From Rhodobacter capsulatus SB 1003 (GTDB lineage Bacteria > Pseudomonadota > Alphaproteobacteria > Rhodobacterales > Rhodobacteraceae), in NCBI RefSeq assembly GCF_000021865.1, contig NC_014034.1, forward strand, positions 2,040,001 to 2,072,000: a stretch of 32,000 nucleotides of DNA, written 5' to 3'. Below are positions 9,056-29,255 of this stretch, one piece after another; within the stretch, counting starts at the first letter, position 1; each line of letters begins with the position of its first letter. The translations under genes and the position numbers were made by a program. The notes under the pieces were generated by a model, which ran no database searches, had not been told where the DNA came from, and saw nothing but the letters and a program-made list of their open reading frames with translations.

Positions 9056-9913
9056 TCAGGCGGCGCTCCGGCCCATCAGCACCCGCACCTCATGCGCCTT
9101 GAGCGCGCGGCGGGCCGCGGTCCAGCCTCCGCGTCGGGCGATCCTGTCCAGATCGGGGAAAATCGCAGCCAGTTCCGCACGTTGCGGTGCGTCCAGCTGG
9201 GCCAGGGTCTGGTCGCCGGGCTGAAAGCTTTCGGTCCAGGCGCCGTTGGCCCGGATGATCTCATGCGCGTCAAGCATCAGATGCAGATAGGTGACCTCGT
9301 CGCGCTTCAGCCGGGTGATGCCGGGCTGACCAAGCATGTGCAGCGCCGCCGCCAGAACCTCGGCCTCGCCGAACAGCAGTTCCGCCCGCGCCCCCGAAAT
9401 CAGCATCCGGTGCTGCGGGCTGACCAGCATGTCGGTCTCGGGCAGACCCTCGCCCAGGGCCCCCGCGGCGATCCGCACCGGCTGCAGCTGCGGCACCGCC
9501 GCCAGATCCGCCGCCTTCAGCCGTCGCCGTCCGATCCAGCGGATCGGCTGATAGCCATTGTCGCGCGTCAGCACCCGGTCGCCCGGCCGCAGCTTTTCCA
9601 CCGGCACCTGACCGCGCTTGGTCTCGATCAGCGTGCCGGGGGTGAGACAGGGCATATTGCGCAGCAATTCGACGTTTTCGATGTTGGAAAAGCGCCTCGT
9701 CGCGCCGCTCAGCCAGAGGATCGTGCCGGATTCGCCGGTGATCACCATCCGCGACCAGTCGATGTCCTGGCGAAACAGGCAAAGCCGGTCCACATCGCTG
9801 GTATAGGCATCCTCCGCGCCGCCCGAAAGCGAATCATCGCCCGCCCCCGCAAGCATCGTATCGGCCGCCGCCGTTGTCAGCCTGTCGTTCTGCTCCGTGC
9901 CGGTGATCGCCAT
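9056..9913 (-). CDS. Short Hint-domain protein A (one RTX-like repeat, degenerate junction, Hint module)
   Basis: The track ORF was trimmed to the ATG at 9913 (MAITGTEQND...), which is preceded by GGCAGGAACAAG. The N-terminus carries LAGAGDDSLSGG. The Hint module starts at the Cys codon 9647..9649 (NMP-CLTPGTLIETKRG...) and aligns without gaps to the C-terminus of the giant protein. Confidence 0.85.
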   Translation of the reverse strand: MAITGTEQNDRLTTAAADTMLAGAGDDSLSGGAEDAYTSDVDRLCLFRQDIDWSRMVITGESGTILWLSGATRRFSNIENVELLRNMPCLTPGTLIETKRGQVPVEKLRPGDRVLTRDNGYQPIRWIGRRRLKAADLAAVPQLQPVRIAAGALGEGLPETDMLVSPQHRMLISGARAELLFGEAEVLAAALHMLGQPGITRLKRDEVTYLHLMLDAHEIIRANGAWTESFQPGDQTLAQLDAPQRAELAAIFPDLDRIARRGGWTAARRALKAHEVRVLMGRSAA

Positions 9914-10034
9914 CTTGTTCCTGCCTGTCCCGATCGGGCTTTGCAGAAACAATCGGTCGGCACAATGGCAGATTGGGGCCGCAAAAGCGGCAAAGCCGGT
10001 GCGCTCTCGTGGCGGGAAGATGGCCGGGGCCGCC

Positions 10035-10793
10035 TCAGGCCGCCGAGCCGACCTCGGCAAGGGGGCGCACTGCGACGGCTCCGGGATGGTCCGGGGCCGC
10101 CAGGCCCGGCAAGGCCCGGGTCACCGCGTCGCGGCTGTCGCTTTCCAGCGCCGCCAGACTGGCCTCGGTCGGCAGGAAGCTTTCCGACCAGGCGCCATCG
10201 GCCAGAACCAGCTCGTGATGCGCAAACAGCAGCTGCCAATAGTCAACCTGGGCGGCGGGATGCAGGGTGATGCCGTCAAGCCCGACCAGATCGCGCGCCA
10301 TCGTCAGACGTTCGCCGCTTTCGCCCCCGCCCGGCAGACAGGTCAGGAAACGGTGGTTCGGCGACACCAGCATGTCACGTTCGGGCAGGCCCTGCCCCAG
10401 CGCCCCGGCGGCGATTCGCACCGGGCGCAGCAGCGGGTTGAGCCCCAGCGCCTGCCAGCCGAAGCGGCGACGCCCGACCCAGAGCAATTCCTGCATGCCG
10501 TTGTCGCGGGTGATCACCCGGGCCCCCGGCACCAGCTCCGAGACCGGAACGCCCCCCTGCCCGGTGGCGATCAGGCTGGTGGCGGTGAAACAGGGCACCG
10601 CCGCGGCGATCTGCGCCAGATCAAGCGCGAAGATCTGCCCGCCCGCGGCATCGCGGCCCTCGGCGCGGCCGCCCAGACCGTCGTAGCCGTCAAACTGAAG
10701 GCGGATCTCGACCATGGAATAGTCGCCCCCCCAAGGCCCGGAAGGGTTGCCAAAAACCGCCGCCCCCGGCGTGAAGTTGCCCGTCGCCATCAT
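10035..10793 (-). CDS. Short Hint-domain protein B (unique 67-aa N-terminus plus Hint module)
   Basis: The track ORF was trimmed to the ATGATG at 10793/10790 (MMATGNFTPG...). The Hint module starts at the Cys codon 10590..10592 (AVP-CFTATSLIATGQGG...) and contains RDNGMQELLWVGRRR, PVRIAAGALGQGLPERDMLVSPNHR and HELVLADGAWSESF. Confidence 0.8.
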   Translation of the reverse strand: MMATGNFTPGAAVFGNPSGPWGGDYSMVEIRLQFDGYDGLGGRAEGRDAAGGQIFALDLAQIAAAVPCFTATSLIATGQGGVPVSELVPGARVITRDNGMQELLWVGRRRFGWQALGLNPLLRPVRIAAGALGQGLPERDMLVSPNHRFLTCLPGGGESGERLTMARDLVGLDGITLHPAAQVDYWQLLFAHHELVLADGAWSESFLPTEASLAALESDSRDAVTRALPGLAAPDHPGAVAVRPLAEVGSAA

Positions 10794-10978
10794 CCTGCGC
10801 GTCCTGATCCGGAGCCATCGGGGGACACCCCACGGCCCCCGCATGCCAGCATACTCCGAAACCCGCCCTTCCAATAGGTTAACGATCCAGAAATTGTCAC
10901 AATTTGTCAGAACTTTCCGTTTCCCGCCACGATACCGGCGCAATCCGCCCCGATCCCGCCAGATCAGCCCGCGCGCGC

Positions 10979-11010
10979 AACGGAAAGACGCCCGGGGTTT
11001 CCCCCGGGCG
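10979..11010 (-). terminator. Probable terminator of the giant RTX-Hint gene
   Basis: On the minus strand the hairpin CGCCCGGGG GAAA CCCCGGGCG is followed by TCTTTCCGTT, about 27 nt after the stop. It shares the 16-mer CCGGGGTTTCCCCCGG with the hairpin at 30716..30731. Confidence 0.5.
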
Positions 11011-11036
11011 CCTTGCCCCCACCGGCTTGTCTTGCC

Positions 11037-11621
11037 TCAGCGGTGCTTGAGCAGCGCCGCCTCGTGTTTCTTCAGGATCTTGCGCGCCGCACCATAGCCC
11101 TCAAGGCCGTCACGGCTGCGCAGCTCCGGGAACAGCTCCAGGATCTCGGCGCGTTGCGCATGACCCAGACCTTGCAGCGACTGATCCCCCGGCTGGAAGC
11201 TTTCGGTCCAGGCGCCGTTGCCCAGAACCACCTCGTGCCGGTCGAACATGAAGTGGATGTAGCTGGTGCCCAGCGTCTCCACCGGCTTCACGCCGCGGTT
11301 GTCGATCAGATGCTTGGCCGCCACCAGAACCTCGTGTTCCTCGAAGTAAAGCGCCGTGCGTTCGTTCGCCACCAGCATCCGGTGGTTGGGCGAAACCAGC
11401 ATGTCGCGTTCCGGCAGACCGTTGCCCAGGCTTCCGGCCCGGATCAGCACCGGCTTCAGATGCGGCGTCGCCATCAGCTGCGCCCGGGTCAGATCGGTGC
11501 GGCCGATCCAGCGGATTTCCTGAATGCCGTTGTCGCGGGTCAGGATCTTGTCGCCTTCGCGCAGCTCTTCGACCAGCCGCTCGCCCTTCGGCGTCGCGAT
11601 CAGCGTGCCGGGGGTGAAGCA
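11037..11621 (-). other. Hint module plus C-terminal tail of the giant protein (aa 1872-2065)
   Basis: The Cys codon is at 11619..11621. The blocks are CFTPGTLI, ILTRDNGIQEIRWIGR, PVLIRAGSLGNGLPERDMLVSPNHR, HEVVLGNGAWTESF and the tail QRAEILELFPEL...KILKKHEAALL. Confidence 0.8.
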
Positions 11622-14600
11622 GGGCGGGATCACCTTCTCGATGTTGCGGAAGGTCAGCGAGCCGGTGACATTGCCGTGATCGTCAAGGAAGGTGACGGTG
11701 CCGTTTTCCGGGTTCGTCGGATCGTAGTTGATCCGCAGCGGCCCCGCCGTCGTCAGATCGAGCGTGTCGAAATCGTCGCCACCCTCGTTGCCGTCGATGA
11801 AGTCGTGGTTGCCGCCGTCGCGATTGACCACGATGAAGACGTCGCGGTCATCGCCGCCCAAAAGCGTGTCGACGCCATCGCCGCCGATCAGCGTGTCATT
11901 GCCCACGCCGCCGTCCAGCAGATCCTGGCCCTGACCGCCCGAGAGGCTGTCATTGCCCGCATCGCCGTAAAGCCGGTCGTCGCCGTCGTCGCCGGTGATC
12001 GTGTCATCGCCCGCGCCGCCGCGGATCGTGTCCTGACCGGTCCCGCCCGAGGCCAGATCGTTGCCGTCCCCGCCCAGGATCGAATCGTCGCCCTCGCCGC
12101 CGATCAGCGTGTCATCGCCCGCCCCGCCGTCCAGCGTGTCCGAGGCCGAGCCGCCGTCCAGGCTGTCATTGCCCGCACCGCCCAGCAGCGTGTCATTGCC
12201 CTCGCCGCCCAGCAGCGTGTCATTGCCCGCGCCGCCATCAAGGCTGTCAGACGAATTGCCGCCGTCCAGACTGTCATCGCCCGCGCCGCCCAGCAGCGTG
12301 TCATTGCCTTCGCCGCCGGTGATCGTGTCCTCGTCGATGCCGCCGTCGATCCAGTCGTTGCCGTTGTCGCCGCTCAGCAGGTCGTCGTCGTCGCCGCCAT
12401 AGATGACATCGTTGCCCTCGCCGCCGCGCACCGTGTCACGGCCGTTTTGCGGCACCGGGTCGGTGTCGTCGGTGACCTCGGTCGGGCTTGTGGTGCCCGG
12501 GCCGTTGTCGGCGTAGATCGTGTCATTGCCGTCGCCGCCCGAGATGCTGTCCGAGCCCTCGCCGCCGATCACCAGATCGTCGCCGATCCCGGCCGCGACG
12601 GTGTCGGCATCGTCGCCCGCGTCGATCACGTCGTTGCCCTGCCCCGCGTCGATGCTGTCGGCATCGTCGCCGGTGCGGATCGTGTCGTTGCCGGTCCCGG
12701 CAATCACCTTGTCACGGTCGTCATTCGGATCGCTGTCGGCGCCGTAAAGCCCCGGATAGGCGATGTCGGGGCGGCCGGTGCCCGAGGTGTCGATCAGGTC
12801 GTCGCCGTCGCCGCCATCGACCAGATCGCGGCCTTCGCCGCCGGTCAGCGTGTCATTGCCAAGTTCGCCGTAAAGCGTGTCATTGCCGGTGCCGCCGCTG
12901 ACGCTGTCATTGCCGTCGCCGCCGTCGATGCTGTCATTGCCTTCGCCGCCATCGATCGTGTCAAGCCCGCTGCGCCCGTCCAGGATGTCGTTGCCCGCGC
13001 CGCCAAGGATGCTGTCGTCATCCAGCCCGCCGGTGATGCTGTCATTGCCCGCGCCACCGTCCAGCGTGTCATCGCCCCGTTCGCCGAGGATGGTGTCGTT
13101 GCCCTCCCCGCCCAGCACCGAGTCATCGCCCGAGCCCGCCTCGATCGAATCGTCGCCGGTGCCCGCGTTCACGGTGTCATTGCCGACGCCCGAGCGGATC
13201 GTGTCATTGCCCGCCCCGGCCACGACGCGGTCATCCTGCGGGCCGTCGCCCGGGATCAGCGCGTCATTGTGGTCGATCCTGTCGCCATCGGGATCGCCGG
13301 TGTAATCATAGTCGATCAGATCGGCGCCATCGGTGCCGGTCACGATGCCGTCGCGGTCGACGATGATGTTCTCGATATTGGTGAAGGTCAGCGTGCCGAC
13401 GACATTGCCGTCATCGTCAAGGAACTGCACCGTGCCGTTTTCGGCATTCGTCGGGTCATAGAGGATGTTGGTGCGGCCCGCCCCGGTCAGGTCGAGCGTG
13501 TCATAGTCGTCGCCGCCCTCGTTGCCGTCGATGACATCGCCCGCGCCCGCCGCCGCGCTGGCCACGACGAAGGTGTCGCGGTCGTCGCCGCCCGACATCT
13601 GGTCGGCCCCCGCGCCGCCGGTCAGGCTGTCATTGCCGGTGCCGCCGAAGATCGTGTCCTCGTCGATGCCGCCGTCGATCGTGTCATTGCCGGCATCGCC
13701 GTAAAGCAGGTCGTCGTCATCCTCGCCATAGATGACATCGTTGCCCTCGCCGCCATGGATCGTGTCCATGCCGTTGTTTTGCACCAGATCGGTGGCGTCG
13801 GGGATGTTGATGATGTCGGGCACGGTCGGGCCAAGGCCGCCGTAGATGATGTCATTGCCCGCGCCGCCATCGACCACATCCGAGCCCTCGCCCGAGGTGA
13901 TCGTGTCGTCGCCCTCGCCGCCCAGCACGGTGTCGGCATCGACGCCCGCGTCGATCCAGTCGTTGCCGCTGCCGCCCTCGATGCTGTCGGCGTCGTCGCC
14001 GGTCAGGATCGTGTCATGGCCCGCCCCGCCCAGAACGGTGTCGCGGTCGTCGTTCGGGTCGGTGTCCGCCGGGACAAGCCCCGGATAGCCCAGATCGGGC
14101 GAGGCCAGGTCATTGCGGGTATTGATGTAATCGTTGCCGTCGCCGCCCTCGGCCCGGTCGGAGCCAAGCCCGGTGGTGAGGCTGTCATCGCCCGCCCCGC
14201 CCTGGGCGGTGTCATTGCCCGCGCCGCCTTCCAGCGTGTCGTTGCCAAGCCCGCCGATCAGCAGATCGTCGCCCTTGCCGCCCACCGCCAGATCATTGTC
14301 GTCGCCGCCATCCAGCGTGTCATTGCCGTCGCCGCCGCGCAGGGTGTCGGCGCCGCCCTCGCCCGACAGGCTGTCATCGCCCGCGCCGCCATCGACGGAA
14401 TCATGGCCCGTGCCCGCGGTGACGGTGTCGTCGCCAAGCCCCGCCAGAACCGTGTCATCGCCCGCGCCCGCGCGGATGCGGTCATCGTTCGGCCCGTCGC
14501 CCGGCAGGATCGCGTCATTGCCATCGACCATGTCGCCCTGCGGATCGCCGGTATAGCCGGTGTCGATCAGATCGCCGCCCGCCGTGCCGTCGACATAGCC

Positions 14601-21219: not shown

Positions 21220-21720
21220 TCACCGCAAACGAATGACGGTTGCGGCAATGGCGATGAACGCGGTGAAGCTGGTGTCGGTTTTGCAGCAGCGCGTGGCGAT
21301 CCCTCTGTATTCCTTGAGCTTTCCGAAGAAGTTTTCGATCAGGTGGCGCCACTTGTAGGTGTCACGGTCAAATTCAGCTGGGAAGCGTCGGTTGGACTTG
21401 GGCGGTATCACCGCCTCGGTTGCCGCCTCGGCCAAGGCCTCGCGCAGCCAATTCGCGTCAAACGCCCGGTCTGCAAGCAGCTTTCCACCCGAGAGCCGCT
21501 CGATGAGCACCGCAGTCGCGCAACAGGGGTGGCAAAGCAGGAAGCGCGCACTCTTTCCCCCAATCGGTCGTGTAACCGCGTTCGCGGGCCGAAGGGCGTT
21601 TCGCATCGTGGCGCCGCTTGCGGGCGCGGTCGGGGTGGCCGCTTCGGTGGTCACAGCCTCGATCCGCGACCGCATGCCGATGGCATTCTGCGGCCCGCGA
21701 CGGGACGAAGGGCGCGGGCA
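21220..21720 (-). pseudogene. IS5-family (IS427-like) DDE transposase remnant
   Basis: The C-terminal part, LLADRAFDANWLREAL...VIPPKSNRRFPAEFDRDTYKWRHLIENFFGKLKEYRGIATRCCKTDTSFTAFIAIAATVIRLR, matches the conserved IS5-family C-terminus. The upstream part is degenerate: only GPQNAIG-like traces remain, there is no N-terminal HTH region, and I found no terminal inverted repeats. Confidence 0.6.
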
Positions 21721-21933
21721 ATGACCTGTCGCCCGACAAAACACCCGGTACATCGGACAAAAACCGGGAACGGCCGACAACAGCCAATTTGTGTCGACAG
21801 ATCATCGCGTCATGGATGCTACGGGCTTCCAAAGGGCGCGCGCACTTTGCACGCCGTGCAACGCGGTGATGACGGTGCCATCGCCACATGAGGCTTGGTT
21901 TCCCGTTGATAGAGAGCCGGGGGGCGCAGCCCC

Positions 21934-27014: not shown

Positions 27015-29255
27015 ATGACGAAGTCAGCCGAGGCCTTCCGTACGATTACCGAGGTGGCAGAGCTCCTCGAAACCCCGACGCATGTGCTGCGATTCTGGGA
27101 AAGCAAGTTTCCGCAGATCAAGCCGGTGAAGCGGGCGGGCGGGCGGCGCTATTACCGCCCGGCCGATGTCGCGCTGCTGGTGGGGATCAAGCATCTGCTG
27201 CAGGTCGAGGCGCTGCCGATCAAGGAGGCGCAGGCGCGGCTGAAATCGCAGGGCGCGAAGAAGGTCTCGGCGCTGGGGGCCGAGATGCTGAGCGCGAATC
27301 TGCCGCGCGAACCCGTGCCCGAAGCTGCGCCCGAACCGGTCGCCGAAGCGGTGCCGGAAGAGCCGGTTTCCGGGCTTCTGTCGGAAGCGTTCGAGGAAAA
27401 CGTCGCGGACGAACTGGCTTTCGTCCCCGAGGAACCAGAGCCGGTCGCCGAGGAGATGCCGGAAGAGCCGGTTTCCGAGCTTCTGCCGGAAGCGTTCGAA
27501 GAAAACGTCGCAGACGAACCGACCTTCCTCCCTGAAGAATCGGAGCCGGTCGCGGAGGCGGTGCCGGAAGAGCCGGTTTCCGGGCTTCTGCCGGAAGCGT
27601 TCGAAGAAAACGTCGCGGAAGAACCGGCTTTCGTCCCCGAGGAACCGGAGCCGGTCGCCGAGGCGATGCCGGAAGAGCCGGTTTCCGAGCTTCTGCCGGA
27701 AGCAGTCGAAGAAAACGTCGCGGAAGAACCGACCTTCCTCCCCGAGGAACCGGAACCGGTCGCGGAGGCGATGCCGGAAGAGCCGGTTTCCAAGCTTCTG
27801 TCGGAAGTGTTCGAAGAAAACGTCGCGGAAGAACTGGCTTTCCTCCCCGAGGAACCGGAACCGGTCGCGGAGGCGATGCCAGAAGAGCCGGTTTCCGGGC
27901 TTCTGTCGGAAGTGTTCGAAGAAAACGTCGCGGAAGAACCGACCTTCCTCCCCGAGGAACCGGAACCGGTCGCGGAGGCGATGCCGGAAGAGCCGGTTTC
28001 CGAGCTTCTGCCGGAAGCGTTCGAAGAAAACGCCGCGGACGAACCGACCTTCCTCCCCGAGGAACCGGAACCGGTCGCCGAAGCGGTGCCGGAAGCGCCC
28101 GAAGACCTCGGCGCGGAGGATCCGGCAGCGCCTCTGGCGACGCCCGAGGCAGAGGCCGAACGGGGGCTGAGCCCGGAGGAGCTGGATCGGATCGACGAAG
28201 AACGTCGGATCGAACGGGCCCGGATCGAGGCCGAGGCGCGGGCGCTGGAAGCGGCGCAGGCGGCGGTCGAGCAGGCCCGCCGCGAGGCGGAAGCGGTGCG
28301 GGCCGAGCTGCAGCGGCTGCGTCGCGAGGCCGAGCACGCCCGGGCGGAAGCGGCCCGGGCCAAGGCCGAGGCGGAGCTTGCCGCCCAGGTCGCAGCCGCG
28401 GCGCGGGACGCCGCCGAGGCGGAACCGCCCGAGCCCTGGCCTCCCGCCGATCCCGTCACTGCGCCGGAACCGGCTGCGGTGCCGCTGCCCGAGAGCCCGG
28501 TTGCCGCCGCCTTTGACCCGGCCCCCGCGGATGCGCCCGACCCCGCGGCGACGACCGCGGATGCGCCGCCCTTCGAGGATATCGCCTATCGCTTCATCGC
28601 GCCCCGGCCGCTGGCGCGCCCCGCGGTGGTGGTGGCGCCCGAACCGGAGCCGGAGCCGGAGCCCGCGCCCGCCCCTGCCCCCGAACCGGAGCCGGAGCTG
28701 CCGGTTCAGGGCTCGCTTTTCGATTACTTCGCGCAGCCCCCCGAGGCCGCGCCGAAACCGGCGCCGGTCGCCGAGCCGGCCCCCCTGCCCGAGCCTGTTG
28801 TGCCCGAGCCTGTCCCCGAATCCGTGGCAGAACCCGAGCCGGAACCGGAACCGGAACCTCTCGCGGAAGCCGCGCCGATGACCGGGATCGCGGCAGCGCC
28901 CGCTTTCGCCGCGCCCGAGCCGATTCTGGTCTTCGCCGCCCCGCCCGATCCCGAGCCGGAACCAGAGCCCGAACCGGAGCCCGAGCCCGACCCGGCGTCG
29001 GAATTCGATCCGCTCGACCGGGTGGTGTCGCTGATCCTGAGCGGCACCGCGCCGCTGCAGGTGGAACTGGCCGCGGCCGGGCAGATCGATCCGACGGCGA
29101 ATCCTCTGGGCGCCCTGCGCGAGGATCTGACGCGCTTTGCCCCCGACGCGCTCTCGCCGATCGAGCGGATGCGGCTTCTGGCGGCGCATGACCGTCTGGT
29201 GCGGCTGGCCGGGCGTCTGGCGCAGCCGCCCCGGCCGGTTCCGGCGCGGCGCTGA
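27015..29255 (+). CDS. MerR-family HTH protein with a very long acidic Pro/Glu-rich repetitive extension
   Basis: The N-terminal MerR HTH reads [45 protein letters not shown]. It is followed by 7 x 35-aa repeats, a charged Ala/Arg/Glu helix, EP-dipeptide runs and a non-repetitive C-terminal segment of about 85 aa. Confidence 0.85.
27331..28100 (+). repeat. In-frame 105-bp tandem repeat, 7 full units plus partial flanks
   Basis: The unit marker CCGGAAGAGCCGGTTTCC recurs at 27354, 27459, 27564, 27669, 27774, 27879 (as CCAGAAGAG...) and 27984, and a diverged partial unit starts at 28089. The unit encodes [35 protein letters not shown]. Confidence 0.95.

Follow-up and report, generated by a model that had tools for sequence, protein, structure and literature searches.

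Do three adjacent genes of Rhodobacter capsulatus SB1003, all ending in the same cysteine-first module, represent one large carrier protein with a store of exchangeable parts, or are they separate and long-established members of one locus, and what would the shared module do in each of them? The genes, here named g1, g2 and g3, lie together in a 32,000-nucleotide stretch of this genome (contig NC_014034.1, positions 2,040,001 to 2,072,000), which was analysed as a whole and is referred to as the window. Judging from sequence comparison, their modules are ancient positional orthologues that have been co-inherited and are not each other's spare parts; each belongs to a C-terminal cassette composed of a cap, a Hint domain and a tail, and each probably releases the polypeptide that precedes it, hereafter its passenger.

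11037..17234, minus strand: g1, 2065 aa (ADE85645.1 / WP_013067624 / D5AUK6)
10035..10793, minus strand: g2, 252 aa (ADE85644)
9056..9913, minus strand: g3, 285 aa (ADE85643)

The cap-Hint-tail cassette

The three minus-strand open reading frames (ORFs) singled out in the earlier note are all present, and the exact sequences of their products and of the neighbouring proteins are those of R. capsulatus SB1003 entries (RefSeq/GenBank). RefSeq names all three 'Hint domain-containing protein'. Their GC content at third codon positions is high, as usual for coding sequence, and both g2 and g3 have their own start and ribosome-binding site (RBS). By accession arithmetic the locus tags are approximately rcc01898-rcc01900, with g1 at about rcc01900; searches for rcc01898-01901 and literature searches for Hint-domain proteins in Roseobacter gave no result. 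Each product ends in a module that starts with a cysteine (Cys1872 in g1, Cys68 in g2 and Cys89 in g3, the modules being 194, 185 and 197 aa long, respectively), and the shared sequence blocks that the earlier note had described are all seen in an alignment of the three. Its hand counts of identical positions from the Cys were reproduced exactly (52/80 for g3 versus g1, 45/80 for g2 versus g1), which confirms the observation as real, with a likeness of the modules far above chance. No Hint gene besides these three was found when the window was searched with a hidden Markov model (HMM) of the module.

The assignment to the Hint superfamily is equally well borne out. Significant matches to Pfam Hint_2 (PF13403) were obtained at all three C-termini, spanning aa 1871-2017 of g1 (E 3.7e-57), aa 67-209 of g2 (E 1.3e-42) and aa 88-234 of g3 (E 3.4e-60), with scores of 193, 146 and 203 bits, where the cut-off is 28.4, and coverage of positions 1-147 (g1, g3) or 1-146 (g2) of the 147 in the profile. 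AlphaFold2 models of g1 aa 1830-2065 (pLDDT 92, pTM 0.81) and of full-length g2 (pLDDT 82, pTM 0.80) are both Hint-like, and Foldseek assigned both to the Hint fold (E 1e-5 to 1e-3, probability 1.00). The top structural matches are Tetrahymena BIL2 (6Y75/6TMM), Prp8, the gp41-1 and DnaB inteins, the bacterial intein-like (BIL) domain 2LWY of C. thermocellum and Vint; the g2 model also matched Hedgehog 1AT0. There appears to be no solved Hint_2 structure, since a sequence search of the PDB returned no close solved structure and, at best, a weak match to the A-type BIL 2LWY (E 1.4e-3). The Hedgehog Hint family PF01079 was not matched at E<=0.01. The proposal that the first cysteine acts as the nucleophile also holds up, insofar as Cys1 and the block-B His are kept in all three modules and in most relatives.

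The Pfam domain is only part of what is conserved. An alignment of the three SB1003 modules with 40 homologues, together with the AlphaFold2 models, delimits a three-strand cap, the Hint domain and a tail of ~45-54 aa. In g1 these parts, and the related features of the passenger, are arranged as follows.

15165..15332, minus strand: first internal cap motif (DYDTLDITG...NGTVEFLDADGNVTGALNFTEIENI), g1 aa 635-690, closing an RTX block, with no Hint domain after it
14619..15161, minus strand: two Big_9/Cadherin_5 domains (Pfam), g1 aa 692-872, in the passenger
13350..13508, minus strand: second internal cap motif, g1 aa 1243-1295, closing RTX block B, with no Hint domain after it
11631..11774, minus strand: third cap, g1 aa 1821-1868, three beta-strands abutting Cys1872 by way of the linker V-I-P-P
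11202..11621, minus strand: Hint_2 domain, g1 aa 1872-2011 (Pfam, alignment, AlphaFold2 model, Foldseek)
11040..11201, minus strand: tail, g1 aa 2012-2065, conserved, mostly helical and basic (pI 9.4), forming the end of the protein

The cap consensus (…D-x-D-T-L-D-L…Y-D-P-x-N-x-E-N-G-T-V-x-F-L-D…F-x-N-I-E-x-V-I-P) runs directly into Cys1, whose codon in g1 is 11619-11621. Within the Hint domain the conserved residues are C-F-T-x-G-T, T-R-D-x-G, V-S-P-x-H-R (block B), H-E and G-x-W-[TS]-E. Block B reads S-P-N/Q-H in all three modules (Ser1948-x-x-His1951 in g1), and the last beta-strand of g1 ends in ...AWTE2011. The g1 tail opens with a nearly invariant Ser2012, directly after the invariant Glu2011, followed by F-Q-P; the tail consensus is S-F-Q-P…Q-R-x-E…L-F-P-E-L…A-A-R-x-x-L-K-x-H-E-A-R-x-L, typically with a hydrophobic stretch at the end, and the tail has no match in Pfam. 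In terms of alignment columns, T52, G55, S119 and E182 are invariant and C43, H122 and S183 nearly so. Cys1 is kept in 150 of 162 related modules, and the block-B SxxH in most. The His-Asn of intein block G is absent from the modules, the g1 domain ending in ...G-A-W-T-E; whether the nearly invariant Ser after the last predicted Hint strand counts as a '+1' residue depends on the published BIL domain boundary.

The product of g1 is an RTX/cadherin-like protein of 208 kDa (pI 4.05, 18% Gly, 19% Asp+Glu) that carries the cassette at its C-terminus and 33 HemolysinCabind stretches (Pfam) before it; it has no N-terminal signal peptide or transmembrane segment. It thus looks like an RTX substrate of type I secretion systems (T1SS), with Ca2+-binding nonapeptide repeats, an acidic composition and no signal peptide. 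One weak RTX repeat is retained in g3 and none in g2. Because the two internal caps end RTX blocks without a Hint domain behind them, the cap looks like a terminator of RTX blocks that also serves as the N-terminal neighbour of the scissile bond. Comparison of g1 aa 1-160, aa 360-575, the cap and the tail with Pfam at E<=1 gave nothing. A non-RTX region of ~200 aa at g1 aa ~365-575 (window 16100-16150 to 15510) is found in 71-77 of 80 g1 orthologues and is an uncharacterised conserved passenger domain.

Descent of the array and its upstream elements

At E<=1e-3 the cassette profile matched 24,057 representatives of 50%-identity clusters, and at the stricter E<=1e-30 it matched 6,718. Almost all the named matches are 'Hint domain-containing proteins' of Rhodobacterales, usually with RTX repeats. 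Family proteins range from ~340 to 3,850 aa, and in 149 of the best 150 representatives the cassette ends at the C-terminus of the protein. To place the SB1003 genes within this family, we compared 81 species-level loci, that is, the window and 80 loci drawn from a one-genome-per-species scan (among the matches listed), whose products are 66-97% identical to the g1 module and whose six frames were searched with the module HMM. They represent Rhodobacter, Sinirhodobacter, Phaeovulum, Gemmobacter, Thioclava, Aliiroseovarius, Phaeobacter, Rhodovulum and other genera. Two to four co-oriented Hint genes occur in 54 of the 81 and, apart from one locus (L015), the additional copies directly follow the g1 orthologue on its downstream side. 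With genes classed by their best match, g1 alone is the most frequent pattern (27 loci), followed by g1-g3 (19) and g1-g2-g3 (10); this last order, of a large RTX gene, a Hint-only gene of ~252 aa and an RTX gene, recurs in other genera. Passenger length in g1 orthologues varies from ~460 to 2983 aa, whereas the g1 module stays 66-97% identical across genera.

The array stands in at least three flanking contexts. In SB1003 it lies between a MocR/GntR regulator (ADE85641) and PPK2 (ADE85646), with a YjiS-like ORF and then MocR on the 3' side of the trio, and the trio is found between MocR and PPK2 in 6 other R. capsulatus assemblies as well. In many genera the array instead has Zn_peptidase upstream and a MobA-like gene downstream, and elsewhere it adjoins DedA. 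Genes that recur beside the array have housekeeping roles: MobA-like NTP transferase, Zn_peptidase PF04228, DAO/GCV_T dehydrogenase, Liv-type ABC, VTT/DedA, DsbB, HD dGTPase and Fe-S biosynthesis. The putative neutral zinc metallopeptidase PF04228 is located upstream of the array on the same strand in 31 loci (for instance L018, L021, L023-L025, L028 and L030) and is the immediate neighbour in 24; the gene is absent from the R. capsulatus context. That 54 of 81 loci have co-oriented Hint genes although the flanks differ by lineage agrees with the earlier suggestion of a single locus, since the clustering is not accidental. On sequence grounds the array is an old set of vertically kept paralogues and a conserved unit.

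The two short genes differ in origin, and the description of both as minimal Hint genes applies to g2 only. Its product opens with a disordered stretch (aa 1-24), followed by the cap at aa 29-58, the Hint domain starting at Cys68 (codon 10590-10592) and a comparatively short tail. Its cap motif is its own and conserved (V-E-x-R-L-x-F…G-x-I-E-G-R-D…), and it belongs to a family of Hint-only proteins of ~250-255 aa with 316 matches at E<=1e-20, so that the Hint-only form of ~252 aa is ancestral for g2. In g3, one residual RTX repeat is followed by the cap, the Hint domain (starting at Cys89, codon 9647-9649) and the complete tail. The short form of g3 is confined to SB1003 and a few further R. 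capsulatus strains; the orthologue is an RTX protein of ~515-720 aa in strains SP108, SP36 and SP18 and in Rhodobacter sp. TJ_12, and the R. aestuarii frame has 649 codons, its start being unresolved. The difference is due to an in-frame loss of RTX codons at a single junction, where the first RTX repeat is fused to the cap.

9814..9821, minus strand: g3 deletion junction, in-frame, ~1044 bp or ~348 codons of RTX repeats, relative to strain SP108

Alignment therefore shows the g3 of SB1003 to be an in-frame RTX-deletion allele, that is, an RTX gene shortened by deletion. In two R. capsulatus assemblies (L002 and L005, both at 815-1777), g3 encodes 320 aa and a frameshift replaces the end of the conserved tail, which may reflect relaxed constraint on g3 in R. 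capsulatus. Decay of the short genes in SB1003 was considered and is ruled out by dN/dS, yet the g3 tail is frameshifted in these two assemblies. For Hint plus tail, compared with other strains and species, dN/dS is 0.14-0.20 for g1, 0.20-0.42 for g2 and 0.16-0.29 for g3, values that show all three modules to be under purifying selection.

Would such genes supply modules to one another? The earlier note had envisaged a surface protein with exchangeable C-terminal modules. In a model of this kind, g2 and g3 would be orphan modules recombining into g1, as in polymorphic-toxin/contact-dependent inhibition (CDI) loci, and it is true that the module at the 3' end of the large g1 recurs in the genes that follow it in the same orientation. 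PT-HINT systems (MafB, CdiA-like) resemble this locus in having Hint near the C-terminus of large secreted proteins and repeated downstream genes (PMC4524018, PMC4725963), but at this locus Hint is not followed by a toxin domain, immunity genes are absent, and the C-termini show conservation, not polymorphism. A polymorphic toxin with its immunity protein was rejected for these reasons, the tail being conserved over 45-54 aa. The exchange of cassettes also conflicts with the divergence of the modules. Whole-module identity is 54% for g1-g3, 47% for g2-g3 and 43% for g1-g2, the longest exact DNA matches between the SB1003 modules are 24, 17 and 11 nt, and 130 of 135 modules are closer to a module of another species than to their own neighbour; the g1 module, for instance, is 80-90% identical between genera and ~55% identical to the adjoining g3. 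On this positional orthology and the exact matches of at most 24 nt, cassette exchange or gene conversion was rejected, the modules being ancient orthologues and not homogenised copies. Moreover, g2 and g3 have starts and RBSs of their own and are under purifying selection, and g3 is a full RTX protein in relatives. The recombining-module model is thus exceedingly improbable, and the idea of exchangeable modules finds no support. Perhaps the three genes are co-regulated.

Upstream of the array, and between its genes, the following elements were recognised.

17737..17753, minus strand: CtrA-box-like GTTAA-N7-TAAAC, ~500 nt upstream of the g1 ATG
17673..17681, minus strand: GAAACAATC, core of gGAAACAATC, ~60 nt downstream of the CtrA-like box and upstream of g1
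9946-9954, plus strand: second GAAACAATC copy, ~35 nt upstream of g3, not seen in relatives
10986..11013, minus strand: GC-rich hairpin of 12-15 bp, then UCUUUCCGUUG, directly 3' of the g1 stop (-41.6 kcal/mol, z -3.6)

The CtrA-like box, within the 900-bp region upstream of g1, is the only near-consensus site in the window (expected 0.29). Conserved half-sites around a variable spacer are shared by R. capsulatus strains, R. aestuarii, TJ_12 and three Sinirhodobacter species; in 8 related Rhodobacter/Sinirhodobacter loci the half-sites are invariant and the 7-nt spacer is not, a phylogenetic footprint of the putative site. An ATTGTT flanks the box near 17822. The GAAACAATC element is more widespread. 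It has 35 occurrences in 1.42 Mb of related loci, ~29 of them upstream of the Hint array (roughly 30-640 nt upstream, mostly of g1 and usually in gene orientation), and it precedes the array in 27 loci of many genera (L007-L086). The window holds only the two copies listed (expected 0.13; 0/100 shuffles). No partner motif and no extracytoplasmic-function (ECF)-type -10 was found at a fixed distance from the element; a sigma-54-like site adjoining it in SB1003 was discarded, being not conserved in relatives. The hairpin after g1 looks like a terminator, and because of its strength and its position behind the g1 stop, g1, g2 and g3 may be separate transcription units. An AT-rich stretch lies at ~10870-10940, before g2.

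Proposed activity of the modules

The best explanation for these data, and one we hold to be somewhat better than an even bet, is that every module cuts off the passenger on its N-terminal side at Cys1, in all likelihood once the protein has been exported. Because the catalytic residues are under selection, N-terminal autocleavage at Cys1 is the best-supported activity, and export would precede it because g1 and g3 resemble T1SS substrates, being RTX proteins that are acidic and have no signal peptide. According to this scheme, g1 and g3 would be exported through an unlinked T1SS, and extracellular Ca2+ would then fold the RTX beta-rolls and the cap abutting Cys1. The Hint domain would carry out an N-to-S acyl shift at the Pro1871-Cys1872 bond, and the resulting thioester would be resolved mainly by hydrolysis or thiolysis, so that the RTX/cadherin-like passenger is freed from Hint and tail. 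Ca2+-dependent folding of the RTX block and cap beside Cys1 might thereby time the cleavage.

By inference, the modules would be B-type BIL-like, a class to which Pfam Hint_2 corresponds. The combination of RTX repeats with a BIL was reportedly published in 2003, and the primary work on B-type BILs is said to be that of Amitai et al. (2003, Mol Microbiol 47:61) and Dassa et al. (2004, JBC 279:32001). Type B BILs have the intein motifs except block G, and their cleavage is uncoupled from splicing (PMC4031507; PMC7765530); reviews of Amitai 2003 and Dassa 2004 describe the N-terminal flank as cleaved in the manner of inteins and the C-terminal flank by an atypical route. The SB1003 modules share with them the Hint fold, the N-terminal Cys, block B and the lack of block G (no His-Asn). 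They also share a location in variable proteins of secreted type, which for B-type BILs are RTX or FhaB proteins (33 RTX stretches in g1, with a variable passenger and a conserved module across orthologues), and the activity reported for these BILs is cleavage, not splicing. They differ in the conserved cap and tail, the fixed C-terminal position and the g1-g2-g3 order, which were not found described in the literature reached. The difference from a canonical intein is greater, as the modules are C-terminal and not inserted, have no His-Asn and, in g1, leave only a 54-aa tail after the Hint domain.

Other systems show partial likeness. Ruegeria pomeroyi YP_168868 is a secreted 2164-aa RTX protein with an A-type BIL, and peptides of its BIL region are missing from the exoproteome, which suggests processing in vivo (PMC2953401). 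Like g1, it is a Rhodobacterales RTX exoprotein with a Hint-type domain, but its domain is internal (aa 158-359) and ends in His-Asn, whereas that of g1 is C-terminal and ends in Thr-Glu. In a 2010 review, homology to Hedgehog/inteins was recorded for nine RTX proteins. In Hedgehog Hog, a C-terminal Hint domain with a short extension ends the protein and its Cys1 thioester frees an N-terminal secreted passenger, as is proposed here for g1; there is, however, no detectable homology beyond the superfamily, the present proteins are bacterial with an RTX passenger, and the analogy is one of architecture. Tetrahymena BUBL BIL2 (PDB 6Y75/6TMM), the thioester of which can pass to lysine, is the top structural match to both the g1 and the g2 model, but it shares only 10-12% sequence identity with them, ends in Asn and lies between ubiquitin-like domains. 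The self-processing module (SPM) of FrpC/ApxIVA is likewise an autocatalytic, Ca2+-triggered module within large RTX proteins (PMC7078468), with an unrelated fold and chemistry (Asp-Pro cleavage and an isopeptide link). Finally, R. capsulatus itself has Rcc00280, an extracellular Ca2+-binding RTX protein with a regulatory phenotype, the repressor of its gene transfer agent RcGTA (Ding et al. 2019, as cited in PMC9638019). The gene is distinct from g1: the possibility that they are one was ruled out by accession ADE85645, which places g1 near rcc01900.

Several points weigh against this explanation. The B-type assignment is based on Pfam Hint_2, taxon and RTX context. No T1SS genes are found in the window or in the 20-kb neighbourhoods of the 80 related loci, which makes T1SS export an assumption; linked genes for an ABC exporter, a membrane fusion protein (MFP) or TolC are likewise absent from the window and from the conserved neighbours of those loci. 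Unlinked T1SS genes are common, so the missing linkage does not exclude export, and to our knowledge there is no reliable sequence model for T1SS secretion signals. Moreover, a model of exoprotein release does not explain g2, which has no RTX repeats, a shorter tail and a passenger of 67 aa. The conserved tail and the Glu|Ser pair at the C-terminal boundary of the Hint domain also suggest chemistry beyond N-terminal hydrolysis.

It is the conserved tail, the Glu|Ser junction and a Hint-only paralogue with a 67-aa passenger that keep alive a transfer of the Hedgehog or BUBL kind and, at a low probability, splicing. In the former case ('clip and link'), a specific nucleophile would capture the Cys1 thioester and the passenger would become anchored or cross-linked; the nucleophile could belong to a lipid, to lipopolysaccharide (LPS) or peptidoglycan, or could be a lysine side chain on a partner protein, for instance g2 or g3, and the conserved tail would be the adduct-recognition region. 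A Hint domain with a ~45-54-aa helical C-terminal extension does parallel Hog, which is Hint plus a sterol/adduct-recognition region, and the top structural match, BIL2, conjugates its N-extein to lysines without ATP. The FrpC SPM provides an instance of a Ca2+-dependent clip-and-link module already in RTX proteins (PMC7078468), and the conserved co-inheritance of the three paralogues fits partner roles. We nevertheless consider transfer rather unlikely, given that there is no sequence homology to Hog domains (with PF01079 unmatched), that no candidate acceptor was identified, that published assays of B-type BILs report cleavage only and that g1 stands alone in 27 of 81 loci. Splicing proper would excise the Hint domain and join the passenger to the tail (for example a secretion signal), with Glu2011|Ser2012 replacing the intein Asn|Ser. 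The last predicted strand does close with an invariant Glu, and the next residue is an almost invariant Ser, in the place of the terminal Asn and +1 position of inteins, but His-Asn is absent, cyclisation of Glu is not an established route, and according to reviews BILs lack the route by a +1 nucleophile and those of type B only cleave; splicing is accordingly very improbable.

A different reading is that the Hint_2 module is no longer an enzyme and is a folded C-terminal domain for the export, retention or interaction of T1SS substrates. The position of the cassette at the extreme C-terminus, where T1SS signals lie, would suit such a role, as would the contrast between a module conserved across genera and passengers of very different length, and a basic, helical tail that typically ends in a hydrophobic stretch. 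What speaks against it is that residues needed only for catalysis (Cys1 in 150 of 162 modules, the block-B His in most) are kept under purifying selection, and that g2 carries the module but has no RTX repeats to export. We judge this reading unlikely. Beyond cleavage of the passenger, which remains our preferred explanation, a fuller picture can be drawn, although we regard it as unlikely: the g1-g2-g3 set may be a Ca2+-triggered, ATP-independent 'clip-and-link' system that builds or anchors a surface structure covalently. After export, the Hint thioester of the RTX proteins would go to a defined acceptor (a lipid or glycan of the envelope, or a partner paralogue's lysine), which the tail would pick as the sterol-recognition region of Hedgehog picks cholesterol; g2 would be a minimal partner or regulator; and the gGAAACAATC element, with the CtrA-like box in Rhodobacter, would drive the set.

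Other features of the window and significance of the family

Two further regions of the window are of note. A gene at 27015-29255 (plus strand) encodes a 746-aa protein with a helix-turn-helix (HTH)-like N-terminus (MerR-type by eye) and 7.3 tandem copies of a 105-bp (35-aa) acidic, Pro/Glu-rich repeat at 27333-28099, with PEPE runs; the GC content of the repeat region reaches 76%. Pfam gave no match for the minus-strand ORF that overlaps it, and none is listed for the plus-strand gene among the precomputed assignments. A tRNA gene (21033-21118) is followed by a DDE transposase fragment (DDE_Tnp_1_2, 21220-21780), which is probably a remnant of an insertion sequence (IS), given that gene calls in other strains are just 96-110 aa long. 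An Rfam scan of the window found two tRNAs and nothing else.

The Hint_2/BIL family and its link with RTX proteins are already known and annotated, and knowledge of Hint chemistry is unchanged by this analysis. What it adds is the defined cap-Hint-tail cassette, the conserved order of the paralogues and the upstream elements that are conserved with them. In Rhodobacterales the Hint_2/BIL proteins belong to the most expanded families, with ~24,000 clusters at 50% identity, and in one comparative study the Hint_2 domain and RTX repeats are over-represented in fast-responding marine Rhodobacteraceae (PMC12487129). R. capsulatus SB1003, with its conserved trio, defined cassette and conserved upstream motifs, offers a genetically tractable handle on their biological role, and it comes with natural variants for experiments, g2 as the minimal member and g3 as an RTX-deletion allele.

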